DNA of 64,000 nucleotides from Minisyncoccota bacterium (GTDB lineage: Bacteria > Patescibacteriota > Minisyncoccia > Phycocordibacterales > UBA9973). Location: the NCBI GenBank assembly GCA_942491275.1, contig CALNZI010000007.1, positions 63,353 through 127,352 on the forward strand. Reading direction: 5' to 3'. The position numbers and the translations under genes are program-made. Positions 4,535-64,000 of the stretch are shown here, one piece after another; within the stretch, counting starts at the first letter, position 1, and each line of letters begins with the position of its first letter. The notes under the pieces are model-generated. The model made no database searches. It saw only the letters and a program-made list of their open reading frames with translations, and had not been told where the DNA came from.

Positions 4535-4562
4535 AGTATTTATTAGCTAGAATACAAAAAGC

Positions 4563-4668: not shown

Positions 4669-4745
4669 CATATCTTAGAGAAGTCTCTAAGGGTTAGGTC
4701 TCTTATTTACTTGTAATTGAATAATACCAGTATTCGGTCTTTTTG

Positions 4746-5513: not shown

Positions 5514-5548
5514 ATAAAAACACCTAATAGAATGGGTGTTTTTATTTT
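5514..5548. terminator. Rho-independent terminator hairpin (bidirectional A/T flanks)
   Basis: aaaaacacc-taatagaat-ggtgttttt. Confidence 0.5.
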
Positions 5549-5682
5549 TCTAAATTAAATAAAAATATCGTGTTTAATTTACCGACATTTAAAAGTCCTT
5601 TTATGGCTTTGTAGGTCGTCTTGTCGGTAAACCTACATAGCCATAAGAGGATTTTGTTCTTTATAAACTAACTTATACAAAA

Positions 5683-5910
5683 ATGCGAAGTATAGAAAGA
5701 AAGTTTAAGAAAATTAAATCTTCTAATCCCTACTTAGGAGCATATCCTTGTCTGGTGCAGGCAATCAAAAATAAGAATTATGTAAGAAGGTCTCTCCTTA
5801 ATGCTTTCAAAAAACTTATGCCCGATGACGAATATGCTAAAGATGAAAAAAAAGAACTTGTTGATTATCTAGAGAAGATGACTAAACCCTCTGAGGAGGA
5901 CGAATTTTGA
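5683..5910 (+). CDS. Hypothetical small protein
   Basis: 75-aa ORF. Confidence 0.3.
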   Translation: MRSIERKFKKIKSSNPYLGAYPCLVQAIKNKNYVRRSLLNAFKKLMPDDEYAKDEKKELVDYLEKMTKPSEEDEF

Positions 5911-6541
5911 ACTAAATTTCGTCCAGGAAGCATTTAAAAAAGAAAAATGGAACTAAGTTCAAATGCAAAAAAAGACCTTCAAGAAACCTTTAAATTAGAA
6001 ATAAATCTAGAAAATTTAAGTGATGAAGAATTAAACAAAATTGGTTTATTTTTACTTGAGATTTATGGGCAAGGATTAAAAAGAAGGAGTCGTTTAACAA
6101 TTTAATATCTAACACAGCTTTAGGGGGAATGCTGTATAAACCACTCCTACACCTAAAACAATAAGTAATAAATTGGGTTCAGATGCGATAGCTTGGAAAA
6201 ACAGTTGCTTTACACCGTTTAAAATGTTAAATCATTTTGCTCTGTCCGAGCCATTTGATTTGAATCTAATTTGTTAATTATAAAAAGTAAATTCTAAAGG
6301 TAATTGTACTTGTTTATAAATAGATATTAATAAATATTAACTATAATTAATTACCTAACCCCGTAAAGGAATCAAAGGTAAAAGGGGTGGACTGTATCTA
6401 AAATAAGCAAAATTTTATAATTAAATAAGCCAGACTAAATGAAGATTCATAAGCCGTTTTAGAAATGCTTGTGAATAAAAACGAGGTAACAACCATTTAG
6501 TCTGGCGATTAAGTAAAGTTGTTGCCTCATTTTTATTTATT

Positions 6542-8221: not shown

Positions 8222-8281
8222 GGATCGAACCTACGACCAATCGCTTAACAGGCGACCGCTCTACCGCTGAGCTACCACGGA
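8209..8281 (-). tRNA. tRNA-Asn (anticodon GUU)
   Basis: Reverse complement folds as a cloverleaf: acceptor UCCGUGG/CCACGGA, anticodon loop CUGUUAA, T-loop GGTTCGATCC. Confidence 0.8.
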
Positions 8282-25701: not shown

Positions 25702-25724
25702 TAAATATGTTATAATAAATATAT

Positions 25725-44120: not shown

Positions 44121-45626
44121 ATGTCTAAACAAATTGCTTTAATTGTTCTTGATGGATGGGGATATAGAGAAGACACAAAAGATAATGCTATCGCTCAGGC
44201 TAAAAAGCCTGTTTTTGATGAAATATGGAATAAGTATTCACATACTACTTTGAACACTTCTGGCGTTAGTATAGGGCTTCCTGAGGGCCAAATTGGGGAC
44301 AGTGAGATAGGGCATATGACTATTGGAGCAGGAAGAATTTTAGATGAAGACTTAGTAAGGATAAATAAGGTTATTAAACCCGGACACTTTGAAGATAATC
44401 TAGCTATGGATACTTTATTTGATCATGTTAAGGAAAATAATTCTACCTTGCACGTGATAGGTCTGTTGTCTCCAGGAGGAGTTCATAGTCACATGTCACA
44501 TTTATTTGCTTTCCTTGAAACAGCCAAAGAGTACGGGCTTACAAAAATTGCTATTCATGTAATTACCGACGGGAGAGATACTCCTCCTCACGCGGGAGCT
44601 GGATATATTAAACAGCTGGAAGATTTTATTAAAGAAATAGGTGTTGGAGAAATTGCTTCCGTCTCTGGACGACTATACGCCATGGATAGAGACTTACGAT
44701 GGGAAAGATTAGCTAAAGCAGAAGAGGTGATGTTTGAAGGTAAAGGAAAAATTTGTGATATCCCTGCTTCAGAATTTTTAGAAAATTTATATAAAGATGA
44801 AGTTAAATCTGATGAATATTTAAAACCTTTTGTTTGTTTAAATAAAAAAGGAGGAACTTATAAATTAAATAAAAATGATGGTGTATTTCTGTTTAATTTT
44901 AGGGCTGATCGAATGAGAATGATTACAAAGAGATTGATGGAAAGAGCAGAGAAGGACAATATTTCTTTGTCTACTATGACTGATTACGGGAAAGAATATA
45001 AAAGTTTGATTGTTTTTCCGCCAATTCACATTGAAGTTACTTTAGGAAAAATGATTAGTGATCAAGGTTTAACACAAGCCCATATAGCTGAAACGGAAAA
45101 ATTTGCCCATGCTACTTATTTTATAAATTGTGGAAAGGAAACTCCCTATGAAGGAGAAGAACAAATAATGGTTCAAAGTCCTAAGGGTGTTTTAACCTAC
45201 GACCTGGCTCCTAAAATGTCTGCCGAAATGGTAGCTGACAAAGCTATAGAACAAATAGAAAAAGGAACGGATTTCATTTTTATTAATTTTGCAAACGCTG
45301 ATATGGTTGGACATACAGCGAATGTTCCGGCTATTATTACTGCAATTGAAGAAATAAATAAACAATTGGGAAGAGTGCTGGAGGTTCTTCATTCAAAGGG
45401 AGGGATTGCTTGTGTCACGGCTGATCATGGAAATGCTGAAATTAATATTGATCCAGTTACTGGGGCTAGGCATACTTCCCATACTACAAGTTTAGTTCCT
45501 TTTATTATTACTGACACAACTAAACCTTTACATAGAGGAACTTTGGCTGATGTAGCTCCGACTGTTTTGGAATTATTGGATATAGAGAAGCCAAAAGAGA
45601 TGACAGGAGAGAGTTTGATAGATTAG
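44121..45626 (+). CDS. gpmI: 2,3-bisphosphoglycerate-independent phosphoglycerate mutase
   Basis: LIVLDGWGYRED...GDSEIGHMTIGAGRI... iPGM signature across the full length. Confidence 0.9.
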   Translation: MSKQIALIVLDGWGYREDTKDNAIAQAKKPVFDEIWNKYSHTTLNTSGVSIGLPEGQIGDSEIGHMTIGAGRILDEDLVRINKVIKPGHFEDNLAMDTLFDHVKENNSTLHVIGLLSPGGVHSHMSHLFAFLETAKEYGLTKIAIHVITDGRDTPPHAGAGYIKQLEDFIKEIGVGEIASVSGRLYAMDRDLRWERLAKAEEVMFEGKGKICDIPASEFLENLYKDEVKSDEYLKPFVCLNKKGGTYKLNKNDGVFLFNFRADRMRMITKRLMERAEKDNISLSTMTDYGKEYKSLIVFPPIHIEVTLGKMISDQGLTQAHIAETEKFAHATYFINCGKETPYEGEEQIMVQSPKGVLTYDLAPKMSAEMVADKAIEQIEKGTDFIFINFANADMVGHTANVPAIITAIEEINKQLGRVLEVLHSKGGIACVTADHGNAEINIDPVTGARHTSHTTSLVPFIITDTTKPLHRGTLADVAPTVLELLDIEKPKEMTGESLID

Positions 45627-45659: not shown

Positions 45660-45749
45660 GGAGGGTTGGCAGAGAGGTTGAATGCACCACTTTCGAAAAG
45701 TGGAATCCCTGAAAGGGGATCACAGGTTCGAATCCTGTACCCTCCGCCA
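45660..45749 (+). tRNA. tRNA-Ser (anticodon CGA), long variable arm, CCA encoded
   Basis: Acceptor GGAGGGT/ACCCTCC, anticodon loop TTCGAAA, long extra arm. Confidence 0.85.
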
Positions 45750-45764
45750 ATGATTGATTTTAAA

Positions 45765-45998
45765 ATTTGCGCGATTAGCTGTCTTGGTAGGAAAAGAAAG
45801 ATAAATAAATTAGTTTTATGTATGTTTTTTAAATTAAAATAAATTTGCGCGGTTAGCTGTCTTGGTAGGAAAAGAAAGATAAATAAATTAGTTTTATGTA
45901 TGTTTTTTAAATTAAAATAAATTTGCGCGGTTAGCTGTCTTGGTAGGAAAAGAAAGATAAATAAATTAGTTTTATGTATGTTTTTTAAATTAAAATAA
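45765..45998 (+). repeat. Three tandem 78-bp repeats, each beginning with a ~21-nt copy of the tRNA-Val 5' end
   Basis: The unit atttgcgcg(a/g)ttagctgtcttggtaggaaaagaaagataaataaattagttttatgtatgttttttaaattaaaataa starts at 45765, 45843 and 45921, with an exact 78-bp period. A fourth start at 45999 leads into the intact tRNA-Val. Confidence 0.85.
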
Positions 45999-46002
45999 AT
46001 TT

Positions 46003-46075
46003 GCGCGGTTAGCTCAGTTGGTAGAGCGACTCATTGACGTTGAGTAGGTCACAGGTTCGATTCCTGTATCGCGCA
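46003..46075 (+). tRNA. tRNA-Val (anticodon GAC)
   Basis: Acceptor GCGCGGT/ATCGCGC, anticodon stem-loop ACTCA-TTGACGT-TGAGT, T-arm CAGGTTCGATTCCTG. Confidence 0.8.
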
Positions 46076-46111
46076 CAAAGTATTAGAATAAATATAACCA
46101 CATTAAAATTT

Positions 46112-46745
46112 ATGGAAAATACACAAGTAATTATTTTAGCAGCAGGAAAGGGGACAAGAATGGAGTCTGAAGACCCCAAGGTTCTTTCTTTGCTTAAGAA
46201 GAAACCATTTCTAAAACACATATTAGATACTCTTTCTCATTTAAAACTAACCCTTGAGCCGGTAATTGTTGTTGGATATATGAAAGAAAGAATATCTGAA
46301 GTAATTGGGAAAAATTTTAATTATGCTCATCAAAAAGAACAATTAGGAACTGGTCACGCAGTTCTTTCGGCTAAAGACTCAATGCACTCAGACCATAAAA
46401 CAGTTATGGTTATTTCAGGAGACCAACCACTGGTTTCTAAGGGCACTTTAGAAAAATTAATAAAGGTTCATAAAAAGAATAATTCAATGGTTAGTATTGC
46501 TACTGTTAAATTACCTGATTTTAATGAATGGAGGGAGGGAGCTCTCACTTGGGAAGAGTTATAAGAGATGAAAATGGTAAAGTCTTAAAAATTGTTGAAA
46601 ATAAAGACGCCACCGAAGAAGAGAAAAAAATTACAGAAATAAATTATGCTTTGTATGTTTTTGATGGAGATTGGCTTTGGGGAAATATAGATAAATTAAA
46701 AAATGAAAATGCTTTAGAGCAACCAGTGTCAAGTTTGTCGGCGAT
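46112..46745 (+). pseudogene. GlmU-like sugar-1-phosphate nucleotidyltransferase N-terminal domain, frameshifted and truncated at the composition junction
   Basis: [17 protein letters not shown]...GTGHAV...ISGDQPLV, then a frame change near 46530-46550 (a gggaggga run), continuing [24 protein letters not shown]. The AT-rich sequence ends around 46745. Confidence 0.55.
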
Positions 46746-47475
46746 AAACAGATTGTGGTCATTCCCAATACCCCCTTCCTCTGGGGTCCGGAAGCCAGCG
46801 TCAGTAGTGGTATCCGGGCGCGACTTCACCTAAGTTGAAGGTTCAACGTTTCTGGTTCCTGGTCAGCCTTGCCGGCATTCGGGCTATTCGTTACTAAATC
46901 AACCTTGGTTACACCAGATTATTGCGAGCCGTCCGCCGCCAGGCGACATTCCGTCTTAAATGAGTATATTGACACATCCGCCTTCATCGATTCCCCGGGA
47001 ATTCGGCCGGTACCGAGCGCCCGCATCCAGACTGGCCACACCGGGCGCGGTACGATTGGCGACGGCCTTTGCTGTGGTGCGCAAATTTGCCGCGGTCGTT
47101 TAGCAAACCATGACCGACTCACCGTTGGCGATTTCCGATACCGGGCATCAGCGGAATTAATCAGATCGCATCGTCGCTTTTTTGTTTCAGATGGGGGATA
47201 TTTATCAAACATCGATAAGACCCTGGTCCTGGCTGTGCGGACTGATGACCGTGGATCGGATAGTGCTTAACCGCGGCATCCCGAGGCTGCTTTCCAGGGC
47301 TCGATATGCGTCAGGAGGGGTGGAATCCGGTCGTTTTTTCATCGCCGCTATTTAACAGCTGTAGATCTCGATCTTGCCCGATGGCGTCGGGAAGGGGTTG
47401 TTTACCGGATCATCGATCTGTTCGCGAAAGGCAGCGGGGTGTTTCAATTCAATTTTGGTGAGCAGCATCAGCTGT

Positions 47476-48600
47476 TTAAATGCTTGTCGTGTTCAAACCC
47501 GGTGTGTTGTGCGATATATTTGATGTGATCGAATGGAGGTAAAGCCAGTCAGTCCCAAAACGCTCAGCCAGCTGGGTAAAAATTGTGTCAGATCGGAGCG
47601 GGTTTCGGGCCGGGGTCAGGGCCGATTCATATAGATAACAAGGTCCGCCAAGCCACGGTTGGGCGATGTCTTCTTCTTCCAGAAAATGGGTGACCGGCAA
47701 CACGATATCTGCCCAGCGGGCCGTTGGCGTCATGAAAAGATCGTGGACCACGATACATTCCGGGCGTTTTAACCCTTGCAGACCTTTATTTATATTTTGA
47801 AACTGATTTAACAGGTTGCAGCCCACGATATAAACCAGCTTGATATCGGCTTCAAACCCACCGGCTTTTCCCTCCAGCAGGGCGTCATAAATTTGGGTTA
47901 GATGGATTTTCGGATTTCTTTGCCGGGGTACCTCCATCGGATCGGCAATTGCGCCCGCTTTCGATATACCCAGGCCCGCCAGCCACCTAGCCCGCCTTTA
48001 TTGCCGATGTTGGCGGTCATGGCTGCCAGGGTAATGGCCGACCGGTGGAATTGTTCACCAAATGCGGTCCGGCCGGTTTCTCATCCCGTAAACGGTGCCG
48101 CCGGTTTAGATTGGGCATATTCTCTGGCTGAGGTCGTGATGTCATCTGCTGTTACACCAGTGATTGGTGAAGCCCATTGCGGTGTTTTCGGAATCCCGTC
48201 CCCATCTCCCATCACATAGTGCATTGAAATCGTAGAGAACACCTTCAGTACGCCGGGTCTTGATAAACTCATGATCGTAATATTCTCGGATATCATCACC
48301 TGGGCCATGGCAGCAGCATATGCGTGTCGGTAGCCGGTTTGATGGCTTCTATCCATTGGTTAGCCAACATTGCCGACAGGCTCAGGCGCGGGTCCACACA
48401 GACGATCCGGGTGCCGTTCCTTTTGGCCTGTCTTAAATAAGCGTATCCGGACCAAAGCGGGAGACCAGCGGATTCAACCCACATGATAATCAGTCTGGAA
48501 TACAGCAGATTGTCATGACTTACCGGTAATTGAGCTGCCCAAGGTGGCTGTGCCGCGAAATTGGCTGATTCGAAGGGCATTGCCGCTGAGGACACTGCAC
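47476..48600 (-). pseudogene. Molybdopterin (DMSO reductase family) oxidoreductase fragments, multiply frameshifted and truncated
   Basis: Pieces ...RIVCVDPRLSLSAMLANQWIEAIKPATDT..., ...YAAAMAQVMISENITIMSLSRPGVLKVF... and ...ECIVVHDLFMTPTARWADIVLPVTHFLEEED... lie in different minus-strand frames. The N-terminal region is absent. Confidence 0.5.
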
Positions 48601-48631
48601 CCGCAAACATATTAAAAAAACGCCTGCTATT

Positions 48632-50221
<1,590 letters not shown>

Positions 50222-50223
50222 CC

Positions 50224-50439
50224 ATGGACGTGATTTACAGCTTGATACCCGGCATGATGTTCTTCGGCCTGATCTTCCTCGTGGTGCTGATCTGGGCGGT
50301 GAAGAAGGGACAGTATGAGGACATGGAGGGCAACGCCAACCGTATCCTGCTGGATGACGACGAGGACATGATGGCCCGCCACGATGACCGCCAGGATGGC
50401 GAAGCAGGCAAGGAAAATACCGATCCGAAGCTGCACTGA
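50224..50439 (+). CDS. ccoS: cbb3-type cytochrome oxidase maturation protein CcoS/FixS
   Basis: MDVIYSLIPGMMFFGLIFLVVLIWAVKKGQYEDMEGNANRILLDDDED follows the CcoS pattern. Confidence 0.7.
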   Translation: MDVIYSLIPGMMFFGLIFLVVLIWAVKKGQYEDMEGNANRILLDDDEDMMARHDDRQDGEAGKENTDPKLH

Positions 50440-50584
50440 TTCATTCCTGCATGCGTCAGGAATGTCGTGCATGAATACCACAGCCGCTTTTCGCAATCGA
50501 CCGGTTTCCGCTACACTCGCATGCCACCGTGCATTCGAATCCGTCGTTCCGCTTCCATCTTCATATTTATCAAAAAGGATGTCG

Positions 50585-50980
50585 CCATGACCCACAAGCC
50601 ATTTTTATTGCGCATCATGCTGGCCGCCCTGTTGCTGCTTTCCGGCATGCCCGGTCATGCGGGAACGGATACGGTCGGCACCATCACCCCCTGCGGAATT
50701 GGCGCAGAGACTGAAAGCACCCAACCCGTCGGTCATCATCGATACCCGCACGCGCGAGGAGTATTCGGCCGGGCATATCGACACCGCCCTGAACCTGCCG
50801 TACGACGAGCTGGCGCACCGGCTGGACGCCATACCCGGCGGCAAATCCGCTGAGATCGTCGTGTATTGCCGGAGCGGTAAACGCGCGCGGATTGCCGAGG
50901 AAATTCTCGTCGAAAAGGGCTATACGAACGTGAAGGATCTGGCGGGGCACTGGCAGGCATGGAGCCGGCAAACGCAGTAG
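50585..50980 (+). CDS. Periplasmic rhodanese-domain sulfurtransferase, interrupted by a 1-nt frameshift in a C5 run (~50690)
   Basis: Signal peptide MTHKPFLLRIMLAALLLLSGMPGHAG in one frame; rhodanese domain PAELAQRLKAPNPSVIIDTRTREEYSAGHIDTALNLP...VVYCRSGKRA in the adjacent frame. Confidence 0.55.
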
Positions 50981-50990
50981 CAGAAAGCTG

Positions 50991-52400
50991 TCAAGCCCGC
51001 ATCAACGCCTCGATTTCCGCCACCGTCTTCGGTGCGGCTGCGGTCAGCACTTCGCAGCCTTGCGCGGTGATCGTCACGTCGTCCTCGATGCGCACGCCGA
51101 TGTTCCACAGTGCCTGCGGCACATCGTCGGCGGGGCGGATGTAGCAGCCGGGTTCGACGGTGAACACCATGCCGGGCTGCAACGCGCGCCACTCGTCGCC
51201 TGCCTTGTAATCGCCGACATCGTGCACGTCCATGCCCAGCCAGTGACCGGTGCGGTGCATGTAGAAGCGGCTGTAGTCGCCGGCTTTCCAGCACGCCATC
51301 GACGCGTGCCGGTGAGCATAGCTTCAGGTCGATGATGCCCTGCGCCAGGACGGCGACGGCGACATCATGCGGTACGTTCCAGTGCACGCCGGGACGGGTG
51401 GCGGCAATGGCGGCTTCCTGGGCGGCAAGCACAAGTTCATAAACGTCGCGCTGCGGCGGCTGAAGCGGCCGTTGACCGGGAAGGTGCGGGTAATGTCCGA
51501 GGCGTAGCCGTCGAGCTCGCAGCCGGCGTCGATCAGCAGCAGTTCGCCATCGGCCTGAGCACGGCATCGTTGCCCACGTAATGCAGCACGCACGCATTCG
51601 CGCCGCCCGCGACGATGGAAGGATAGGCGGGATGGCGCGCGCCGTGGTGGCAGAATTCATGCAGCAATTCCGCCTCGACCTGGTATTCGAACTGGCCGGG
51701 GCGGACAAAGCGCATGGCGCGCCGGTGCGCCCGGGTTGCAATCTCTGCGGCACGGCGCATGACGGCCAGTTCGTGCTCGTCCTTGAACAGCCGCATTTCG
51801 TTGAGCAGCGTGCGCACGTCGTGGATCTCGTTCGGTGCGCGGATGCCGCTGCGCGCCTTGGCCTGCACCTCGCCGCGCGTGTCGAGGATGCGCTGATCCC
51901 ACACCGCATCATGGCCCACCGGATAGAACAGCGCAGGCTGGTTGCCCATCAGTTCGGCCAGCTTGTCATCCAGTTGCGCGACCGGGCAGGCATCATCGAA
52001 CCCGTATTGCTCCCTTGCGGCGTCGGGACCGGCACGGTAGCCGTCCCATACTTCGCGTTCCGGATTCTTTTCGCGGCAGAACAGGATGGCTTGCGTTTCA
52101 TCTCGCCGCGACCAGCACCAGCACCGCCTCGGGCTCGGCGAAGCCGCTCAGGTAATAAAAATTGCTGTCGTGGCGATAACCGTAATGGGTGTCGCCATTG
52201 CGCGCGACTTCCGGTGCGGTGGGAATGACGGCGATGCCGTGCCGCGAGCGGTAGTTTCCAGCAGGCGCTGGTGCGGCGTTGTGCGTAGAGGGCAGATGTC
52301 CAATGAGTCATGGCGCGTTGTGCTGCGAGCGGATCGAGCTGTGTCGAGCTCGGCGAGGCGCTGCGGGGTGCCGATATCCACCCACAGGCCGTCGAATGAT
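50991..52400 (-). pseudogene. pepP: Xaa-Pro aminopeptidase (PepP), split over at least 3 minus-strand frames
   Basis: C-terminal [15 protein letters not shown]...GMVFTVEPG...GVRIEDDV, middle LLLIDAGCELDGYASDITRTFPVNGRFS, and N-proximal HELAVMRRAAEIATRAHRRAM, each in a different frame. Confidence 0.65.
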
Positions 52401-52402
52401 GT

Positions 52403-53116
<714 letters not shown>

Positions 53117-54238
53117 TCAAAAGGTGTACCCCGTTTGCGCCTCGCGCTGCTCCAGCTCGTCCAGCAGGTTCAGCAACGGCTTGAGATCGATATAGCGTGC
53201 GCAGGCGGCACGCAGGTAATCCATCACCAGCGGCAGGTCTTTCAAATAGCCATCCTTGCCGTCGCGATGATACAGGCGCGCGAAGATGCCCAGCACCTTG
53301 AGATGGCGCTGCACGCCCATCCATTCGTAATCGCGGTAGAACTCGCCGAAGTCCGCATGCACCGGCAACCCCGCCTTGCGCGCCTTTTCCCGGTAGCGGA
53401 TCAGCCAGTCCATGATCTCCGCCTCTTCCCAGCGGATATAGGCATCCTTGAACAGCGAGACCAGGTCGTAGGTAATCGGGCCGTATACGGCGTCCTGGAA
53501 ATCCAGGATGCCGGGTGAGGTTAGAATATTGACCTTCTCGTTCTCCCCCTCTCCCGCAAGCGGGATAACCAGCGACTTGGCTGCGGTCGTTTGCAGCCTA
53601 GTCGAATGGCTAGTTGTTTCACTCAGAGAGTTAGAGAGAGGGTGGCCAATATGCATCAAATTGCGCGAATGGTAGTCGCGATGCACGTAGACGCGCGGCT
53701 GGGCGAGATTGCTGGCGAGGATGCGGCGAAAGCATTCTTCCAGTGCTGCCTGCTGCCTGTCGCTGAGCGTGACACCCAGATGCCTGGCGACATACCAGTC
53801 CGGAAACAGGTTCAGTTCACGGCGCAGCAGGGATTCATCATAAGGCGGCAGTTCGTTCGCGCGCGAGGCAAGCTGGATCCTGATCAGTGCGTCAGTGGCG
53901 GAACCGTACAGCCTGCACGCCGTACCGCCATCCAGTACCTGCAGGTAAGTGGTATTGCCAAGATCGGACAGCAGCAGAAAACCCTGTTGCAAATCATGCG
54001 CATATGCATGCGGCACATGCGTTCCGGCCTCCTCGAACAATTTGGCGACATGCAGGAATGGTGGCAATCCTCGGGCTGTGGCGGGGTGATCCAGTGATGA
54101 TTCGGGTCGACCCGTCGACGAATGTAGCGAAAAGTAGCGGCGAAAGCTGCCTTCGTGCTGAAGCCGGAAGGCAAGTGCAAAGGTCTTGCCGGGGAACAGG
54201 TCTTGCAGCCACGCGGCTAGTTGTTGCTGACGTTGCAT
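53117..54238 (-). CDS. amgK: Anomeric MurNAc/GlcNAc kinase AmgK-like aminoglycoside-phosphotransferase-fold protein, carrying an in-frame ~45-codon insertion
   Basis: APH-fold motifs YVHRDYHSRNLM...ILDFQDA; the inserted lower-GC block around 53,520-53,650 contains a REP-like palindrome. Confidence 0.65.
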   Translation of the reverse strand: MQRQQQLAAWLQDLFPGKTFALAFRLQHEGSFRRYFSLHSSTGRPESSLDHPATARGLPPFLHVAKLFEEAGTHVPHAYAHDLQQGFLLLSDLGNTTYLQVLDGGTACRLYGSATDALIRIQLASRANELPPYDESLLRRELNLFPDWYVARHLGVTLSDRQQAALEECFRRILASNLAQPRVYVHRDYHSRNLMHIGHPLSNSLSETTSHSTRLQTTAAKSLVIPLAGEGENEKVNILTSPGILDFQDAVYGPITYDLVSLFKDAYIRWEEAEIMDWLIRYREKARKAGLPVHADFGEFYRDYEWMGVQRHLKVLGIFARLYHRDGKDGYLKDLPLVMDYLRAACARYIDLKPLLNLLDELEQREAQTGYTF

Positions 54239-54298
54239 ATCGGGCTTTTGAATGGCGTTAATGGTAAACTCGCGAAAGTTTACCACCTTACTATTGTC

Positions 54299-56522
54299 AT
54301 GCGGCACCGTCTCAAGCCCATCGCGTTCACCCTGCTCTGCACTTTCGCGCATCACGCCAGCGCGAATACCGAGTGGCTTGCCTTGCGCATGGACAAGACT
54401 TTCATGGCGATGTCGGAGCCGGCAGAGGAACCGCCCACCTTCATGGAAGCCGACCGCCTGACGGGCAAAAAGGAAAGCCAGATCGAGGCGCATGGGCAAC
54501 GCGGTACTGCGCAAGCGCGAGCCAGTCCATCAAGGCGGATCGCCTGCTGTATTTCCAGGATACCAGTGACCTCGACGCACAGGGCTCGGTGGTACTGGAA
54601 CAGGGCGGCAACACGATGCGCGGCCCGCACCTCAAGCTGAACCTGGATACCGATATCGGCACCATGGAACAACCGGTATTCTATCTTGCGGAAAATGACG
54701 GACGCGGTTCGGCGGACATGATGCACATCCACGACAAGGAGCATTACACGCTCGACAATGCCACCTATACCACCTGCCCCGCCGATAACGAGGACTGGCT
54801 GCTGAAAATGCGCGGCCCGGAAATCGACCGCGACCGGCAGATAGGCACTGCCCATCATGCCTGGGTAGAGTTCATGGGCCTGCCGATCCTGTATTCCCCA
54901 TGGATGGACTTCCCGCTCAATGACCGGCGCAAGTCTGGTTTCCTGTCGCCGGTATTCGGCAGCACCACCAAGGGCGGCAAGGAACTGACCCTGCCCTATT
55001 ACTGGAATATTGCGCAGAACCGCGACGCGACAATCGCGCCGCGTGCAATGACCAAACGCGGCATATCGCTCAATAATGAATTCCGCTACCTGGAATCGGG
55101 CTATAGCGGCGAGCTACAACTGGATGTATTGCCCGACGACAGGCTGGCCAGACGCAGCCGCACCCGCGTATCGGTTGTCCATAAACAAGCCATTGCAGGC
55201 GGTCTGAACGGCTATGTCAACCTGAACAGCGTTTCGGACGACGCCTATTTCCGCGACCTGGGCAGCACCATCAATGCCACCTCGCAGGCCAACCTGTTGC
55301 AGGAAGCGGTTTTGACCTATGGTGACGGCTGGTGGAATGCGGCCGCACGCATCCAGCGTTACCAGACCCTGCAGGATCCCACCGCCCCGATTGGCGCACC
55401 ATACAAGCGCCTGCCGCAATTGACGGTCAATGCACAACAGAGTTATTCGGATGCCCGTCTGGCCTTTGCCGGCGAGTTCGTCGATTTCAGCCACCCCACC
55501 GCGCTGGAATGTGCGAGACGCCTGGTCATCCATCCCAGCGCCAGCTATCCCCTGACTGTCGATCCGGCCTTTTACGTAACGCCGAAAATCGCGCTGCACA
55601 GCACGCACTATGTACTGGAAGCGAACAACCGCAATACTCTGCCGAACGCTTCGCGCACCCTGCCCATCGTGAGCGTGGACAGCGGGGTGGCTTTCGAGCG
55701 CGACTGGGATCTGTTCGGCGGTAGTTATGTACACACCCTCGAGCCGCGCGCCTTTTATGTTTATGTGCCCTACAAGGATCAAAACCAGCTGCCCAATTTC
55801 GACTCGGCCCAGGCCAATTTTGATTTCACGCAGATGTTCACCGAAAACCGTTTCTTCGGCAACGACCGGGTGGGGGACGCAAACCACGTTACGCTGGCCG
55901 TCACTTCACGCCTGCTGGAGCCCAGAGAAACGGCATGGAGCGACTGAAATTATTGATAGGCGAACGTTTCAGCTTTAAGACCCCCCGTGTAAATCTGGTT
56001 GCGCCCACGACCACCACCAGCAAATCCGACATTCTGCTCGCCGCCTCCGGCAGGCTGACCAATGCGTGGTCTTTAGACAGCGAGTTCCAGTACGACCCCA
56101 ATCAGTCGCACAGCCAGCGCTACAACATCGCTTCGCGTTACCGGCCGGAAATCGGCAAATCCTTCGACCTCGGCTACCGCTTTTCACGCAACACCTTGCG
56201 CCAGATCGACGTTTCCGGGCAGTGGCCGCTGTCCAGCCACTGGCGTGCAATCGGGCGCCTGAACTATTCGCTGCAGGACGGCAAAACCTTGGAGTCGATT
56301 GCCGGGCTTGAGTATAATCAAAGCTGCTGGACGCTTCGTTTCGTAGCGCAACGTTTTACTGTCGCGCAGCAGGATGCCAATACCGGCCTGTTCCTGCAGC
56401 TTGAATTGAATGAATTTATCAGTGTCGGCGTCGACCCCATCAACGCTTTGAAGCAAAGCGTGCCGAGCTATACAAAGTTGAACGAGAAAACCCCCAACAA
56501 ACCCGGTTCAGCCCTGCGCTGA
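54299..56522 (+). pseudogene. lptD: LPS-assembly protein LptD, interrupted by at least 4 frameshifts
   Basis: Signal peptide MRHRLKPIAFTLLCTFAHHASA, OstA-like N-terminus, then beta-barrel segments in shifting frames (breaks near 54,490-54,520 and 55,925-55,945). Confidence 0.7.
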
Positions 56523-56535
56523 ATCAGGCAGAGGA

Positions 56536-57897
56536 ATGATGATGCCCAGGATAGCTGCCACCGCGCTTGTTTGCTGCGCCGCCCTTATTGCCACCCACCC
56601 CGCTTGGGCCGCCGACACCATGACCAGGCCTGCACATGCTGCGCCAGCCGCTCTCGACCCGCAAAAACAGGTGGCAGTCATTGACTGGGTCGTTGCGGTA
56701 GTCAACGATGATGTCATTACCCGCAAGGAACTGGACGGGCGGTTGCGCGTAGTGGTGCAACAACTGCAAAAGCAGGGCACGCCGCTGCCTCCCCCTGAAG
56801 TGCTGGAAAAACAGATACTCGAACGCATGATCACCGATATGCTGCTGGCGCAATTCGCCGAGGAAAACGGCGTCCGTGTCGACGACACGCAACTGGATCT
56901 GGCGATCACGCGCATTGCCCAGCAAAACAACTTCCCATCGCAGGCCGAATTCCGCGCCAGACTGGAGGCGGATGGTGTGGATTACAAGAAATTCCGCGAG
57001 GAAATACGCAGTGAAATCATTGCCACGCGCCTGCGCGAGCGGGAGGTGGAAAGCAAACTCATTATCAGCGACAGCGAGGTGGACAGCTATCTCGCCAACA
57101 AGGCGAAAATGAAAGGTGTTGAGGAAGATATCCATCTTGCGCACATTTTGGTAGTGATACCGGAGCAGGCCAATGCGGAAAAAATCCAGGCCGCGCGCAG
57201 CAAGGCAGAGCAGGCATTGAGCCAATTGCGGGAAGGCGCAGATTTTGCGCAAGTGGCCGCCGGTTACTCAGATGCGAAAGATGCCTTGAAGGGCGGTGAT
57301 CTCGGCTGGCGGCCAAGCGACCGCCTGCCGCCGATGTTTGCCGCCGAACTGCAAAAATTGCAGCCCGGCCAGACCACCACCGTGCTGCGCAGCCCGAATG
57401 GCTTACATATCCTCAAGCTGGTCGACAGGCGCAGCGGCAGCGCGCCGGAGATAATCACGCAAACCCATGCACGGCATATCCTGATCAAGACCAGCGAGAT
57501 CGTTTCTGAAAATGAGGCAAAGAAACGCCTGCTGGAAATCCGGCGGCGCATCGATGCCGGCGCGGATTTTGCCGAACAGGCCAGACGCTTCTCGCAGGAC
57601 GGCAGCGCGCAACAGGGGGGCGACCTGGACTGGCTGTCTCCCGGGCAGACCGTGCCGGAATTCGAAGAAACCATGAACAAGCTGCAGCCCGGCAAGATCG
57701 GCATGACACAAACGCAGTTCGGCTGGCACCTGATTCAGGTACTGGAGCGCAGGAACGCCGATGTCAGCGAGCAGCAGCAGCGCCAGCAAGCGCGCATGGC
57801 CATCGGAACCTTCCGGTCGGACGAGTTGTACCAGGATTGGCTGCGGCAATTGCGCGATCGCGCCTTTATCGAATACCGCATCGAGGAAAACCAGTAA
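56536..57897 (+). CDS. surA: Periplasmic chaperone / peptidyl-prolyl isomerase SurA
   Basis: Signal peptide, SurA N-terminal domain and two parvulin-type PPIase domains (GGDLGW...; FGWHLIQV). Confidence 0.85.
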   Translation: MMMPRIAATALVCCAALIATHPAWAADTMTRPAHAAPAALDPQKQVAVIDWVVAVVNDDVITRKELDGRLRVVVQQLQKQGTPLPPPEVLEKQILERMITDMLLAQFAEENGVRVDDTQLDLAITRIAQQNNFPSQAEFRARLEADGVDYKKFREEIRSEIIATRLREREVESKLIISDSEVDSYLANKAKMKGVEEDIHLAHILVVIPEQANAEKIQAARSKAEQALSQLREGADFAQVAAGYSDAKDALKGGDLGWRPSDRLPPMFAAELQKLQPGQTTTVLRSPNGLHILKLVDRRSGSAPEIITQTHARHILIKTSEIVSENEAKKRLLEIRRRIDAGADFAEQARRFSQDGSAQQGGDLDWLSPGQTVPEFEETMNKLQPGKIGMTQTQFGWHLIQVLERRNADVSEQQQRQQARMAIGTFRSDELYQDWLRQLRDRAFIEYRIEENQ

Positions 57898-57900
57898 GCT

Positions 57901-58920
57901 GTGAACACAGCGCTTTCTCCGGCACCCTTGGTAGTCACCTCCGGTGAGCCGGCAGGCATAGGCCCCGATTTATGCGTGCAACTGGCAGCCGCGCAACTTG
58001 ATATCCCGTTCGTAATCATGGCCGACCGGCGCCTGCTGCAACAGCGCGCCGCACTGCTCGGTGCCGATTTGCGTCTTTGCGATTATGCCGGTGCAGGAAC
58101 ATGGAAAAATGAAAAAGGCAGGGAGCCTCCTGTCATACCGGTCATCCATGTTCCGCTTGCCGCGCCATGCCAGGCCGGCATGCTGGAAATATCCAACAGC
58201 GCATATGTATTGGCCATGTTGCGCCGTGCCGTACAGGGCTGCCAGTCCGGTGAATTTTCCGGCATGGTCACCGCACCGGTGCACAAGGGTGTCATCAACG
58301 ATGCCGGCATCCCGTTCACCGGGCACACCGAATTTCTCGCTGCGCAAACCGGTGCCGATCATGTCGTCATGATGCTTGTCGGGGCAGGGATGCGCGTAGC
58401 GCTGGCCACCACACACCTCCCGTTGAAAGATGTACCGGCCGCAATCACCGCACCACTGCTGGAAAACGTGCTGAACATCCTCAGGCGCGATTTGCAGTGC
58501 CGCTTCGGCATTACACAGCCGCGCGTCCTGGTAGCAGGATTGAACCCGCACGCTGGCGAAGGCGGCCATCTGGGACGCGAGGAAATCGAAATCATGATTC
58601 CGGTACTGGACAGGCTGCGCGCCAAAGGCTTCGATGTCAGCGCGCCGTTGCCTGCCGACACGCTGTTTACTCCGCAAAAACTGGCGCAGTGCGATTGCGT
58701 GCTTGCGATGTACCACGATCAGGGCCTGCCGGTGCTCAAGCATGCCAGCTTCGGCCAGGGCGCAAACATCACGCTCGGCCTGCCGATCATCCGCACCTCT
58801 GTTGACCATGGCACTGCGCTGGAACTGGCCGGCTCCGGCCAGGCCGACAGCGGCAGCCTGCTGGAAGCGATCAGAATCGCGGCACAGATGGTACATAACG
58901 AAGCGGCATATCGTGCATGA
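57901..58920 (+). CDS. pdxA: 4-hydroxythreonine-4-phosphate dehydrogenase
   Basis: VTSGEPAGIGPDL...NPHAGEGG...; GTG start. Confidence 0.85.
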   Translation: MNTALSPAPLVVTSGEPAGIGPDLCVQLAAAQLDIPFVIMADRRLLQQRAALLGADLRLCDYAGAGTWKNEKGREPPVIPVIHVPLAAPCQAGMLEISNSAYVLAMLRRAVQGCQSGEFSGMVTAPVHKGVINDAGIPFTGHTEFLAAQTGADHVVMMLVGAGMRVALATTHLPLKDVPAAITAPLLENVLNILRRDLQCRFGITQPRVLVAGLNPHAGEGGHLGREEIEIMIPVLDRLRAKGFDVSAPLPADTLFTPQKLAQCDCVLAMYHDQGLPVLKHASFGQGANITLGLPIIRTSVDHGTALELAGSGQADSGSLLEAIRIAAQMVHNEAAYRA

Positions 58921-59030
58921 ACTTGCGCCAAAACGTTTTTTTGCCTTATGAACCATAAGGCCATGGTACGTTTTAGCTCCGGCGTCACGCGCTACGCGCA
59001 TGAGCCTTCACTGAAACGCTTTTTTGCCTT

Positions 59031-59822
59031 ATGAACCATAAGGCAAAAAAGCGATTTGGTCAGAACTTTCTTGTCGATGCGCATATCGTCGCCGCTATCG
59101 TTGCCGCCATCCGCCCCGAAGCGAAAGACAACATGGTGGAAATCGGACCCGGGCTGGGCGCGCTGACCCGCCCGCTGCTGGAACGGCTGGATCGCCTGCA
59201 TGTGGTGGAAATCGACCGCGACATCATCGCGCGCCTGGCACACGACTATCCGCAGGGCGGCCCGGCATCGAAACTGATTATCCACGCCGGTGATGCGCTG
59301 GAGTTCGATTTTTCGACGCTGCCAACTCCGCTGCGTATTGTCGGCAACCTGCCCTACAACATTTCCTCTCCGCTGCTGTTTCATTTTGCCGCCTATGCCG
59401 GGCGCATCTCCGACATGCATTTCATGCTGCAAAACGAGGTCGTCGAACGCATGGTTGCCCAACCCTCCACTCCGGAATACGGGCGGCTATCGGTGATGCT
59501 GCAATACCGCTTCCAGATGGAAAAACTGCTCGACGTCCCGCCGCAGTCTTTCCGTCCGGAACCGAAGGTGAATTCCGCTATCGTGCGCATGATCCCGCTT
59601 CCTGCCGGTGAAATCGTGGTGCGCAATGAAAAACTGTTTGCCGCCGTGGTCGGTGCTGCATTCGGCCAGCGCCGCAAGACGCTGCGCAACACCCTGCGCA
59701 ATTACCTGAGCGAGGCGGATTTTGAAAAACTGGGGATCGACGCCCGGCTACGCGCGGAAAACCTGACCGTGGCCGAGTTTGCCAAGATGGCAAATTATCC
59801 TGATATCCACTCCGGCAACTGA
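59031..59822 (+). CDS. rsmA: 16S rRNA (adenine1518/1519-N6)-dimethyltransferase
   Basis: KKRFGQNFL...[10 protein letters not shown] motifs. Confidence 0.9.
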
Positions 59823-59829
59823 TGGCAGC

Positions 59830-61237
59830 TCAGCCTATCCCATGCTGCTTCAGTTTTTTCCACAACGTGGTGCGCGACATGCCAAGCTTCTCGGCAGCAG
59901 CGGCCTTGTTGCCCCCGGTTTCCTTTAACGCAGCCATGAGCATCTCTTTTTCCTGCCCTTCCTGTTGCACGGGCGCGCGGTAATAGCGCTGCACGAGCGC
60001 TACCGCCGGTGCCGTAACGTTCGCAGCACGCAAATCGGCAACCTGATGGCCGGCCTCCTGGATTTCGGGCGGCAAATGGCGTGCCAGGATTGCAGTGCCG
60101 TCCACGTGAACCATGGCATATTCCAGGGCATTGACCAGCTCCCGGACGTTGCCCGGCCAATTGTAGGCGCCCAGCGCATCCAGCGCCTCGCCGGAAAGCT
60201 GTATATCGCGCCCCGGGAGGCGGGCAAGCATATTGGCCAGCATGGTGCTGGCCAGCAACGGGATATCCTCACGGTGCTCGCGCAAGGCGGGAACGTGCAA
60301 GGGGAGCACACGCAAGCGGTAATAAAGATCCGCGCGGAATTCACCGCGACTGACCATGGCCGGCAAATCGCGGTGCGTTGCCGCAATAATGCGCACATCC
60401 ACCTTGCGGGTCTGGTTTTCGCCGAGCCGCTCGATTTCGCGCTCCTGCAAAACACGCAACAGTTTTACCTGAACGTTCAGGGGCACTTCGCCGATCTCGT
60501 CCAGCAACAGCGTTCCGCCGTGAGCGGCTTCAAAACGGCCTTCGCGTGCGGTAGCCGCACCGGTGAATGCGCCGCGCGCGTGGCCTGAACAATTCACCCT
60601 CCAGCAACTGCTCGGGAAAGGCGGCACAGTGCACTCGTATATAAGGCCCCTTGGCACGGCTCGGCTAATTGTCATGCAGCGCACGCGCAACCAGCTCCTT
60701 GCCGGTGCCGCTCTCTCCGGTAATCAGGATGCTGGCCTCGCTGGCTGCCGCCCGCAGTATCTGGCGGAACAAGTCCTGCATGACACCGCTGTGCCCGACC
60801 AGGCCGCCCAGGCGCAGCCTGTCGCTGGCCGCCTCTTCCAGTTGCACCTCCTGAGTCCGGTCGCGCAACACCACGGCACAATATGCCAGCTTCTCGTCGG
60901 AAGGCAGCACCATGGCCCACATGCGCAACGGAACCAGCGTCCCGTCCGGGCGCTGCACGACCATGTCCTGGATTTTTTTCCCCTGTATCGCGTTTTTCAT
61001 CAGCGTGCAATGCCCTCTTTTTTCGCAGCTTCGCGCACAGGACGTTCCCTGGAAAATGCTGGGGCAGAGCTTGTTCAGGATATTGTCGTGATCCTGGCCC
61101 AGCATGCGGCTGGCCGCTTCATTGATCGCCACCACCTGGCGTTGCTGATCAAGAAAAAGAATGCCCTCCTCAAGATTGTCCAGGAATTGGCTCAGGCCGG
61201 ATAATGTAATCATAAACCCTCTCACTTTCGTTAACAC
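59830..61237 (-). pseudogene. Sigma54-dependent transcriptional activator with N-terminal Cys-rich PAS domain, frameshifted around 60,560-60,690
   Basis: PAS-like N-terminus with CPSIFQGTSCARSCEKRGHC, Walker [18 protein letters not shown], then in other frames [23 protein letters not shown] and a C-terminal Fis-type HTH ([15 protein letters not shown]). Confidence 0.7.
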
Positions 61238-61339
61238 GTTAACAGTTGACGCATGTTAACGTCACATCTTTACACTGTCAACCCTTGCCGCAACACACAT
61301 AAAAACGGCAAGTTATTGATATTAAATTGATTGTTATTT

Positions 61340-61357
61340 GTGGCACGGTAAATGCTT
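61340..61357 (+). promoter_or_regulatory. Sigma54 (-24/-12) promoter
   Basis: tTGGCACggtaaaTGCTtg: GG and GC separated by exactly 10 nt, one mismatch to the TGGCAC-N5-TTGCW consensus, about 62 nt upstream of the ATG. Confidence 0.6.
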
Positions 61358-61418
61358 GTAAGTTGGCATAGGCGGTCTTTCGGTACCGCCCCAATCAACA
61401 ACTTAAGGAGTGATCATC

Positions 61419-61929
61419 ATGAAACTGAACAAACTTGCCTTGACCTTGACTACCGCAGCCTTGCTGCCAACCTTTGCCTTCGCCGGCGCAGATCCCGTTG
61501 CCACCAGCTTCGAGCGCGACCTGAACCGCACCGCCACCACCGGGACCACTATCGTGGCCAAGTCGGCTGCCGACCCACTGGACATCATCAACCAGATCAT
61601 CGGCCAGGCTCCGGATGTTGTCGTAGCCAGCTTTGACCGCGACCTGTACCGCGCACCGACCGTAACGCCGGCCGTGTCGTTCGCCGGGGCAGCCGATCCG
61701 CTGGATGCGATCAATGTCGCGTTCCGCAGCGGCGGCAGCAACGAGCAAACCACCATTCTGGCGAGCTTCGAACGCGACCTGTACGCGCGTGCCGACTGTT
61801 TCTGCGGCAGTGAACGCCGGAACGGCTGACCCGCTGGTGGAAGCGTTCAATGTGGCCTTTTACGGCACGACCACCGATCAGGTACTGGCCAGCTTCGAGC
61901 GTGACCTGAACCGCACCTTTGCCGCATAA
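61419..61929 (+). CDS. Small secreted protein with four ~40-aa repeats ending in ASFERDL(N/Y)R, one frameshift near 61,800
   Basis: RBS aaggag; signal peptide MKLNKLALTLTTAALLPTFAFA; repeats containing AADPLD(A/I)IN...(A/T)SFERDL(N/Y)R. Confidence 0.5.
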
Positions 61930-62061
61930 GCGTGTTGACCGGGCGGGCACCTCATGGCCCGCCCACCCGACGAATGTCTTGACTGCCTCCCAAGATAGTT
62001 GAGACTTCGGCCCCCCTCCCCTCAGGGACTTTTTTGGGTGGCGCATCATCACATGCAGCGC

Positions 62062-64000
62062 TCAGGCAGCAGCCAGATGCATGCCATCAGTGGATTGCCT
62101 CTCCAAGAACCTGCTTGAAACAGGCTCTAAATCCGTTCCTCGCGCCGCCGCAATGCATGCCACACCCATGCACTGACAGCAACAATACTGCGGCCAGCAG
62201 CCACAGCGGCCACTCGGCAGGGCACAGTTCCACTTGCGGCGCAAACTGTCTCTCTGCCGGGCATCAAGACGCCAGTATTTAAGCTTGTTGTTCGCCATGA
62301 CATTGGGCTTCACGTTGTACAGCCAGCCATGCTGCAGCACATAGTTTTTCGGGTGAAAGCCCCACAGCCACGGCGAGTCGCGGCGCAGTATCTCCAGCAT
62401 TTTGTCGATGATGGCCTGGCGTCGCGGGCTGTTTTCCATGTTCTTCATCTGCTCGAACAGCCGGTCGTATTCCGGGTTGCTGTAGTTCGCCGCATTCTCG
62501 CCGTTCTGACCTACCTTGGCCTGTGCACCGTGCAGCAGGAACAGGAAGTTTTCCGGGTCGGGGTAATCGGCGTTCCAGCCGAAATAGAACATCTGCGTAT
62601 CGCCCTTGCGGATTTTGTCCTGGAAGCGGTTGTAGTCGGTGCTGCGCACCACCGGTTGCACGTTGATCTTCGGTCGAACTGCTTGCGCAGCCAGTCGAGG
62701 CGCGCCTTGCTGCCCACGCCGGCGGAAGTGGTATCCAGGTTGATCACCAGCGGCTGGCCGGTCTGCGCATTTACGCCGTCCGGATAGCCCGCCTCGGCGA
62801 GCAGTTTTTTTGCTTCTTCGATGGACTTGCGCGGTGCGCCATCCATCCAGTCATACACCTGGCGATTGACGCCTGCTTCGCCGTCGCGGTAGCCGAAGAT
62901 GCCCGGCGGGATCGGCGACTGCGCGGCGATGCCGCGCCCGTTGGCGAAAATCGAGATGAACTCCTCGAAGTCCACCGCGATGGCAATCGCACGCCGCAGT
63001 TTGGTTGCTCGATCGCTGTTGCCGCCCACCACCGGATCCAGCCAGTTGAAGCCGGTGTACATGGTGGAAGTCGAAACAGCGGTGGACAGGCTGATGCCCT
63101 GCGCCCGCATCGCGTCGGTCACGGCGGTTTCGCCGCCGACATTGACCTGCACCGCCTGGTCGAAACTGTCCGAGCTGATGCCGGAGGCGTCGTAATAACC
63201 CTGCAAGAATTTGTTCCAGTAGGGGATGGTCTCCTTTTCCAGACTGAACACCACCCGCTCGATCAGCGGCAGCGGCCTGCCCGCATCCGCCAGCAGACCG
63301 GATTCCCTGTCGCCCGCCTCACCTTCCGCCGGATAGGTCTCGCTGTCGTAATACGGGTTGCGCGACAGCACCATGCGCTGGTTGGGATTGTTCTCGGACA
63401 GGTAATACGGCCCGCTGCCTACCGGCCACCAGTCCAGCGTCAGATTGCGTTCGCGCATCCCCGGCTGCGCGTAGAAGCGCTCGGCCTCATGCGGCATCGG
63501 CGCGAAGAACGGCATCGCCAGCCAATACATGAATTGCGGGTATTTGCCGTGCACCTCGATACGGTAAGTGTGCGCGTCGAGCACCTGCACGCCCGGCAGG
63601 GGGTGTTCGTTCAGGTCGAGAAATGCATCGGGGTTTTTCCGTGCCGCCTGCCGCAAGGTCGCCGCATAATCCTTCAGACCGACGATATATTCGCCCATCA
63701 CGCCGAAAATCGGCAGGTGCAGATGCGGGTGCGCGAGGCGCTTGATCTGGTAGGCGTAGTCCGCCGCCGTCACGGCGCGCGTGGCGCTGCGCGGGAAATC
63801 GTTCAGCGCGTGGACGCCGCGCAAATCGTCCGGCGTCAGGCGCGCGTATTCCGGCACGAACGCCGGGTGCGGCTGGTAGCGCATGCCGGGCTTGATGCGG
63901 ATTTCGTAGACGCTGAAGGCGATCTTTTCCGCCGGCGCATCGTCCGGCAAGGCGCGGCGCTCCTTGTCCAGGTAGCGCACCGTTGGCATCTGCGCCGCCG
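62062..64000 (-). CDS. ABC transporter periplasmic substrate-binding protein, family 5 (peptide/nickel-type); frameshifted near 62,650 and 5' end beyond the window
   Basis: SBP_bac_5-type segments (...VINLDTTSAGV..., QMFYFGWNADYPDPENFL) across two frames. Confidence 0.6.

Follow-up and report, generated by a model that had tools for sequence, protein, structure and literature searches.

Three unrelated genome fragments very probably joined by technical chimerism, the first joint being inside a glmU-like gene of a Paceibacteria contig

The window, that is, the whole stretch of 64,000 nucleotides that was analysed, can be divided into three segments, whose features around the two joints are collected in Table 1. 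In the Paceibacteria segment, no protein gene after gpmI is complete; gpmI itself aligns without frameshift, at 73% identity, to the orthologue of the Paceibacterota MAG JBAYKP010000001.1 (L001), the best relative found. Two tRNA genes follow, and the interval between them is occupied by a 78-bp tandem repeat in 3.2 copies (TRF). The order gpmI, tRNA-Ser(cga), tRNA-Val(gac), glmU-like gene is common to the window and L001, and the identical tRNA pair sits between gpmI and the glmU-like gene both in L001 and in a second relative (L002), with spacers of just 16 and 8 nt. Past its intact 250-aa glmU-like gene, L001 continues directly with a convergent trxB, then with ftsZ and ftsA, all of low GC content. 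The synteny kept in L001 breaks exactly at position 46,713 of the window.

Table 1. Segments, genes and junctions in the window
Feature	Coordinates	Strand	Details
Segment A, Paceibacteria (CPR) DNA	1-46,713		31% GC; ends inside the glmU-like gene at residue ~201 of ~252
gpmI, 2,3-bisphosphoglycerate-independent phosphoglycerate mutase, intact	44,121-45,626	+	501-aa ORF
tRNA-Ser(cga)	45,660-45,749	+	ARAGORN, Rfam
tRNA-Val(gac)	46,003-46,076	+	ARAGORN, Rfam
glmU-like single-domain NTP transferase, 3'-truncated, residues 1-201 of ~252	46,113-46,713	+	Pfam NTP_transferase (PF00483), NTP_transf_3 (PF12804)
Junction 1, Paceibacteria to DmsA-contig-like DNA	46,713-46,714	.	GlmU-like homology ends at 46,713; L137 alignment begins at 46,714 (TTAGAG...)
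Segment B, DmsA-contig-like DNA	46,714-48,629 (1,916 nt)		53% GC; matches a metagenome contig with a DmsA-like molybdopterin oxidoreductase; both ends cut in genes
3' end of a small gene, 5'-truncated, last ~36 codons and stop	46,714-46,826	+	Homologue of the 166-aa gene adjoining dmsA in L137
DmsA-like molybdopterin oxidoreductase fragment, 5'-truncated, residues ~132-714 of 714	46,899-48,629	-	Pfam Molybdopterin
Junction 2, DmsA-contig-like to Gallionellaceae DNA	48,626-48,633	.	L137-like part stops ...GCTA at 48,629
Segment C, Gallionellaceae DNA	48,633-64,000		~60% GC; starts at residue ~294 of an 820-aa ccoI
ccoI/fixI copper P-type ATPase, 5'-truncated, residues ~294-820 of 820, then intact ccoS/fixS	48,633-50,439	+	Pfam E1-E2_ATPase, Hydrolase, FixS
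Gallionellaceae chromosomal block	50,587-64,000	mixed	Rhodanese, pepP(-), murU(-), amgK(-), lptD, surA, pdxA, rsmA, sigma-54 regulator(-), solute-binding protein(-)

The product of the glmU-like gene carries the LAAGKGTRM motif and matches GlmU structures in the PDB at an E-value of ~1e-32, the alignment being confined to GlmU residues ~5–203. The N-terminal pyrophosphorylase domain of bifunctional GlmU (the sugar-1-phosphate nucleotidyltransferase) is clearly homologous to the window gene, whereas the C-terminal left-handed beta-helix (LbH) acetyltransferase domain of that enzyme has no counterpart in it and is entirely missing from the Paceibacteria orthologues. The best 120 homologues are 150–284 aa long, nearly all of them 247–269, and display NTP-transferase Pfam domains only; the named members among them are assigned to Paceibacteria, Parcubacteria or Nomurabacteria. 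No Hexapep Pfam domain was detected either in the window gene or in the intact ~252-aa Paceibacteria orthologues. As these intact orthologues are only ~252 aa long and harbour the NTP-transferase domain alone, the hexapeptide domain is natively absent in the lineage. Judged by its sequence relatives, the gene is a member of a single-domain GlmU-like NTP transferase family typical of Paceibacteria and not a bifunctional GlmU. The original prediction described a glmU cut after its N-terminal domain and devoid of a hexapeptide domain. The gene is indeed truncated and lacks the LbH domain, but the cut is not the cause of this absence: it costs the protein only the last ~50 residues, inside its one domain.

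The end of the Paceibacteria homology can be placed with precision. A 252-residue protein (P0001) aligns to the window gene over residues 1–201 at 72% identity, with one −1 frameshift, and the alignment ends at 46,713. Homology to the GlmU structures and to the Paceibacteria orthologues stops at ...KLKNENA, the final codon being gct at 46,711–46,713; beyond this point the orthologues read ...NENAQGEYYL(P/T)DL... and the window reads ...NENALEQPVSS... The frameshift that had been noticed in a G-rich run of this gene is real. Frameshift-aware alignment locates it as a 1-nt deletion at ~46,545–46,548, which puts the missing base shortly after the GGAGGGAGGGAG run (46,530–46,541), on its 3' side, and the reading frame switches between ...NEWREGAL and HLGRVIRD...

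The base composition of the window changes abruptly at the same place. In 1-kb windows the GC content is 27–37% up to 46,000, then reaches 39% at 46–47 kb, 53% at 47–48 kb and 58% at 48–49 kb, and fluctuates between 56 and 66% from 48 kb through 64,000. Windows of 200 nt show a steep transition from 0.32 (46,500–46,699) to 0.50 (46,700–46,899) and 0.60 (46,900–47,099), and the overall values are 0.31, 0.53 and 0.60–0.62 for segments A, B and C, respectively. The sharp rise in GC reported within the glmU-like gene is thus borne out at both scales. The break had been placed near 46,745; the true breakpoint, between 46,713 and 46,714, lies about 30 nt further left. Comparison of canonical tetranucleotide frequencies, a check proposed for the two flanks, yielded correlations, half against half, of 0.99 within the low-GC side and 0.94 within the high-GC side, as against −0.23 to −0.37 between the sides. 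Composition is therefore discontinuous at the joint and homogeneous inside the flanks, which is the pattern of a chimera.

Immediately after junction 1, the sequence belongs to a different source. In reverse orientation, segment B aligns as a single block to positions 5,393–7,349 of the JGI metagenome contig Ga0114885_10772 (L137). The window reads AAAAATGAAAATGCT up to the joint and TTAGAGCAACCAGTGTCAAGTTTGTCGGCG beyond it, and the reverse complement of L137 reads TATACGGCCA and TTAGAGAAACCAGTGTCAAGTTTGTCGGCG on the corresponding sides, so that the sequence common to both sides of the junction amounts to 0–1 nt at most. The first feature of the segment is the remnant of a small gene: residues 131–166 of the 166-aa product of L137 align to 46,716–46,823, with 29 of 36 positions identical. 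The DmsA-like fragment that follows matches TMAO and DMSO reductases in the PDB. Its top homologues are 714-aa DmsA-like proteins, the nearest named ones being encoded by Desulfobacterales/Deltaproteobacteria MAGs. It had been stated that coding sense is lost after the break: this is true of the plus strand, but the next 1.9 kb hold a minus-strand gene full of indels. Frameshift-aware alignment to one homologue (P0241) disclosed 26 frameshifts and 4 in-frame stops, and once the frames are corrected residues 132–699 align at 85% identity (458/536).

Segment B is followed at junction 2 by Gallionellaceae DNA. The L137-like sequence extends up to AAAAAAACGCCTGCTA at 48,629 and a Ferrigenium-like ccoI commences with TGGAAGGCATG at 48,633; at the matching place the Ferrigenium ccoI reads ...CGCTACC, and the GCTA shared by both parents is a possible 4-nt microhomology. 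The original prediction took 48,600 as the start of the high-GC flank. This boundary is itself a chimeric junction, the second joint at 48,629–48,633. The ccoI product is 87–89% identical to Gallionella and Ferrigenium proteins of 816–820 aa, and residues 294–819 of one relative (P0125) align to it. The HMA and ATPase-cat_bd domains present in full-length relatives are absent from the window gene, together with the first transmembrane helices. The relatives harbour a full-length 820-aa gene with a GGDEF gene upstream. The ccoI-ccoS stretch aligns to Ferrigenium straubiae DNA over 1,798 nt without gaps, at 86% nucleotide identity. Further downstream, positions 50,618–63,989 are collinear with the metagenome contig Ga0209317_1000301 (L136) at 76–83% nucleotide identity, and nine other loci are partly collinear. 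The genes of this block are core Gram-negative genes (lptD-surA-pdxA-rsmA, pepP, murU/amgK) in native Gallionellaceae order.

Junction 1 is thus defined to the nucleotide and junction 2 within about 5 nt. Four genes are cut at the two joints, namely the glmU-like gene, the homologue of the 166-aa gene, the dmsA-like gene and ccoI, and conserved synteny is broken, as observed in chimeric contigs. A candidate third joint is located in the interval from the ccoS stop (50,439) to the start of the rhodanese gene (50,587). In four close ccoI relatives ccoS is followed by cheY/cheZ, and in none of eight relatives of the surA locus do ccoI or ccoS lie near surA. The 147-nt ccoS-rhodanese spacer gave no convincing alignment to the relatives of either side. 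A third joint may be present in this spacer, where a natural rearrangement is equally possible.

The three segments also differ in the density of errors. Frameshifts were located with a frameshift-aware protein-to-DNA aligner written for this work (BLOSUM62, gap −6, frameshift −15, stop −10), whose positions are accurate to a few nucleotides. In ~9.0 kb of segment A coding sequence compared with L001 proteins, one credible frameshift was found, in the glmU-like gene ~170 nt before the joint. A '+2' event at 25,718 falls at an alignment edge, upstream of the ATG of the ORF, and was regarded as an artefact. The 1.9 kb of segment B display 58 indel events relative to the L137 nucleotides, equivalent to ~3% of positions, plus an excess of substitutions; as L137 and L136 are relatives and not true parents, some of the counted indels and mismatches are natural, especially in non-coding stretches. 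Mismatches between segment B and L137 are distributed over the three codon positions as 41:39:81, a profile far flatter than that produced by purifying selection, which indicates that much of the difference is noise. In ~13.7 kb of segment C, 21 frameshifts were counted against L136 proteins or, for ccoI-ccoS, against Ferrigenium nucleotides. Their distribution is patchy: ten cluster at 50.69–52.41 kb, and the stretches 48,633–50,430 and 55,920–60,586 are free of them, the Poisson probability of zero frameshifts in the latter being 0.002. The error density therefore changes stepwise at the joints, from ~1 frameshift in 9 kb to 58 indels in 1.9 kb and then to 21 frameshifts in ~13.7 kb. Such steps fit a different coverage for each source organism and not one molecule sequenced at one depth, and a step of this kind can replace a coverage step where reads are lacking.

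The indels show no link to homopolymers either in segment B, where 20 of 58 events touch a run of the same base, or in segment C, where frameshift sites have a mean maximum run of 2.86 as against 2.74 in the background. A 454- or IonTorrent-type origin was dropped on this account, and the error profile names no platform. The coexistence of 26 frameshifts with 85% amino acid identity in the DmsA-like gene is not the outcome of evolutionary decay and resembles a raw or barely corrected long read.

The joint is documented in the public record. A 101-aa ORF (P0364) that spans junction 1, at 46,528–46,830, has a public entry derived from an NCBI contig 131,526 bp long, and the same holds for gpmI, for the 150-aa glmU fragment P0005, for a distant Paceibacteria protein encoded at 23,257–25,698 and for the Gallionellaceae rsmA; each of the five is a single-member cluster. 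As the junction ORF and genes from both sides derive from this contig, the join was not made by cutting out the window, and the chimera sits in the deposited assembly.

The lineages of the parts are distinct: Paceibacteria/Parcubacteria on the left, Gallionella/Ferrigenium on the right and a relative of the DmsA contig in the middle. A contig of mixed lineage is generally accepted as chimeric on that ground (GUNC, PMC8201837). Taken together with the composition, the truncated genes, the broken synteny and the error steps, this heterogeneity of lineage supports the chimeric join put forward in the original prediction, which missed that the join is three-way. The composition break is very probably a technical chimera of three unrelated genome fragments, which would have been joined at library preparation, sequencing or assembly and deposited as one 131.5-kb contig. 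The break is not a real biological feature, and the truncation of the glmU-like gene is without biological meaning; the source organism almost certainly harbours an intact ~252-aa glmU-like gene followed by its own low-GC DNA.

A genuine insertion would require that a Paceibacteria cell, for example an episymbiont capable of taking up foreign DNA, integrated at least 17 kb of Gallionellaceae DNA and a Desulfobacterota-like fragment into its glmU-like gene by illegitimate recombination, the acquired genes being now in decay. In favour of it, the joint is present in the deposited contig, the frameshifts of the foreign genes are what pseudogene decay would produce, and integration often targets tRNA genes, which are found ~640 nt upstream. 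However, 26 frameshifts in a gene of 85% amino acid identity and nearly flat codon-position mismatches bear the mark of read noise and not of decay, and the rise in error density coincides precisely with the joints, contrary to what a single molecule read at uniform depth would give. The foreign DNA is unameliorated in composition and its cargo consists of Gram-negative core housekeeping genes in native order; moreover, a conserved gene of the lineage is destroyed, with no second copy within the window. Around the joints, a search for direct or inverted repeats, target site duplications (TSDs) and att-like duplications returned only short matches at chance level. No recombinase or integrase is encoded near the joints, the only one seen in the window being at 6,542–8,221, 38 kb off. 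This explanation is consequently very improbable. Equally hard to credit is a real join in which the sequenced population carried DNA from a Gallionellaceae neighbour or host and from a third bacterium, acquired by DNA uptake and illegitimate recombination, at a time when the foreign genes were decaying.

The resemblance to tRNA-associated genomic islands or horizontal-transfer junctions is limited to a sudden shift in GC near tRNA genes. Junction 1 interrupts a protein gene 637 nt beyond tRNA-Val, away from the tRNA 3' end, and neither an integrase or recombinase nor an att duplication or TSD marks the border. In place of intact or plausibly functional accessory genes, the cargo comprises core chromosomal genes of another phylum in native order, with a truncated ccoI and 21 frameshifts.

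As regards the manner of joining, the fact that the joints share at most 4 nt excludes a graph misjoin mediated by repeats or k-mers. This leaves either a chimeric molecule or read, or the joining of finished sequences. Neither the ONT ligation adapter nor the PacBio SMRTbell adapter was matched in the sequence with up to 3 mismatches allowed. The missing internal adapter favours physical ligation of fragments over failed read splitting, or else another route, such as concatenation of contigs. The data establish the three origins, the breakpoints at nucleotide level, the truncated genes, the broken synteny, the stepwise error densities and the presence of the joint in the public record, and the sequencing platform and the step of chimera formation are inferred. 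The likeliest route, with slightly better than an even chance, is that one or more noisy long reads, representing a three-fragment concatenate, extended or bridged contigs in a long-read or hybrid metagenome assembly. The well-covered Paceibacteria part would then have been polished to a near-perfect consensus, the 1.9-kb middle piece would have been left at the error level of raw reads, and the Gallionellaceae part, at low depth, would have been corrected only in patches. One point speaks against this explanation: the Paceibacteria contig was presumably well covered, and it is odd that an assembler should have preferred to extend its end along a chimeric path.

Chimeric nanopore reads (PMC6156371, and White et al. 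2017 as cited there) resemble the window in that unrelated molecules are concatenated and noise is of the raw-read type, with ~3% indels. The window differs from them in the lack of an internal adapter, which implies fragment-to-fragment ligation if a read chimera is involved. In MinION data, self-chimeric reads account for 2–3% of mapped reads (PMC6156371).

A distinctly less probable route, which would still yield an artefact, is post-assembly concatenation, head to tail, of three contigs from a poorly refined bin without an N spacer, or gap filling with raw long reads by a hybrid scaffolder. Every piece ends arbitrarily within a gene, as contig ends do, and the middle piece of 1,916 bp has the size of a minimal binned contig. 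Junction 1 shares nothing between its sides and junction 2 only 4 nt, and the alternation of clean and error-rich stretches in the Gallionellaceae part is what accurate contigs bridged by raw long reads would produce. Against this, WGS submissions are normally not concatenated, scaffolders usually add Ns, of which there are none here, and a bin that mixes contigs of 31% and 60% GC is unusual for composition-based binners.

Multiple displacement amplification (MDA) of a single cell or mini-metagenome is another potential source, through branch migration and template switching at short microhomologies. Chimeras generated by MDA mostly join inverted sequences of the same genome; small insertions with abrupt boundaries are in line with them. 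The possible GCTA microhomology at junction 2 would be in keeping with this process, but junction 1 is without microhomology, three phyla are involved where MDA chimeras arise mostly within one genome, and MDA combined with short reads would account neither for the 58 indels within 1.9 kb nor for the patchy frameshifts. An origin by MDA is therefore unlikely, and a long-read concatenate is retained as the leading candidate.

Among known systems, the window is closest to the inter-genome chimeric MAG contigs of the type detected by GUNC (PMC8201837), with which it shares several phyla on one contig, a sharp taxonomic switch, discontinuous composition and truncated genes. It differs from them in that the joints are resolved to about 5 nt and share no repeat, and in an error profile that varies by segment and points to the level of reads or long-read polishing and not to a de Bruijn graph misjoin. 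This is a textbook inter-genome chimeric contig, of which only the crowding of two, perhaps three, joints into 4 kb and the diagnostic step in error density are unusual.

The value of these observations lies in quality control. The deposited contig should be divided at both joints (46,713/4 and 48,629/33), and the Paceibacteria genome should be cleared of its Gallionellaceae and DmsA-like parts. If unflagged, the contig would endow a CPR bacterium with outer-membrane LPS assembly (lptD, surA), cbb3 oxidase maturation genes and a molybdoenzyme, would imply truncation or loss of glmU in the lineage and would raise estimates of inter-phylum gene transfer. Two spurious products, the glmU fragment P0005 (150 aa) and the junction ORF P0364 (101 aa), are already in protein collections.

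The joint at 46,713|46,714 has left a trace outside the assembly itself. A 101-aa open reading frame on the forward strand (46,528-46,833) runs from the glmU-like gene over this junction into foreign DNA, and it is present in a public protein collection as a predicted protein (P0364). The 150-aa fragment of glmU is listed there as well (P0005), so spurious chimeric proteins have already been propagated into databases.

Compared with positions 5,001-7,737 of the JGI metagenome contig Ga0114885_10772, the middle fragment (46,714-48,629) shows a raw nucleotide identity of 84.5%, with mismatches distributed almost evenly across codon positions. After frameshift correction, the DmsA-like protein encoded by the fragment is 85% identical to a 714-aa homologue (P0241). 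Because of this corrected protein identity and the near-even spread of mismatches, the true parent of the fragment is probably much closer to Ga0114885_10772 than the raw nucleotide value implies.

The Gallionellaceae block carries 21 frameshifts in housekeeping genes between 50,587 and 62,700 (see table); surA, pdxA, rsmA and ccoI/ccoS are free of them. This patchy distribution suggests uneven polishing or coverage. The same block may harbour a third chimeric joint, linking Gallionellaceae to Gallionellaceae DNA, between ccoS and the rhodanese gene (50,440-50,587). The adjacency of these two genes was not found in four ccoI relatives or in eight surA-locus relatives, but the spacer that separates them aligns convincingly to neither side.

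Upstream of the first junction, the interval from tRNA-Ser to tRNA-Val is occupied by a tandem repeat (45,763-46,014) consisting of 3.2 copies of a 78-bp unit that are 99% identical. Every unit opens with a diverged copy of the tRNA-Val 5' acceptor/D-arm (GCGCGGTTAGCTGTCTTGGTAGG), and the last copy extends into the genuine tRNA-Val. In two related loci the two tRNA genes are separated by 16 nt (L001, from a Paceibacterota MAG) and 8 nt (L002). There are two explanations for the repeat: a tandem duplication specific to the lineage, or a further assembly artefact near the contig joint.

A separate observation concerns the Paceibacteria part, where a 2.4-kb stretch poor in open reading frames lies within the region 4,106-8,281. 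The stretch contains a LOOT RNA and a SAM riboswitch; the sole open reading frame downstream of the riboswitch encodes a protein of 82 aa that matches no Pfam family. The region as a whole looks like a mobile element integrated at tRNA-Asn.

Frameshifted genes of the Gallionellaceae block and features of the putative mobile element (window positions)
Feature	Position	Strand	Remark
rhodanese	~50,689		frameshift
pepP	~51,279-52,330		7 frameshifts
murU	~52,391-53,069		3 frameshifts
amgK	~54,062-54,129		3 frameshifts
lptD	~54,491, 54,519, 55,919		frameshifts
sigma-54 regulator	~60,586		frameshift
solute-binding protein	~62,172-62,671		3 frameshifts
Schlafen/AlbA_2 protein	3,460-4,101	-	borders ORF-poor stretch
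LOOT RNA	4,574-4,700	-	76.7 bits
SAM riboswitch	5,037-5,137	-	
large serine recombinase, 559 aa	6,542-8,221	+	borders ORF-poor stretch
tRNA-Asn	8,209-8,281	-	overlapped by end of recombinase gene
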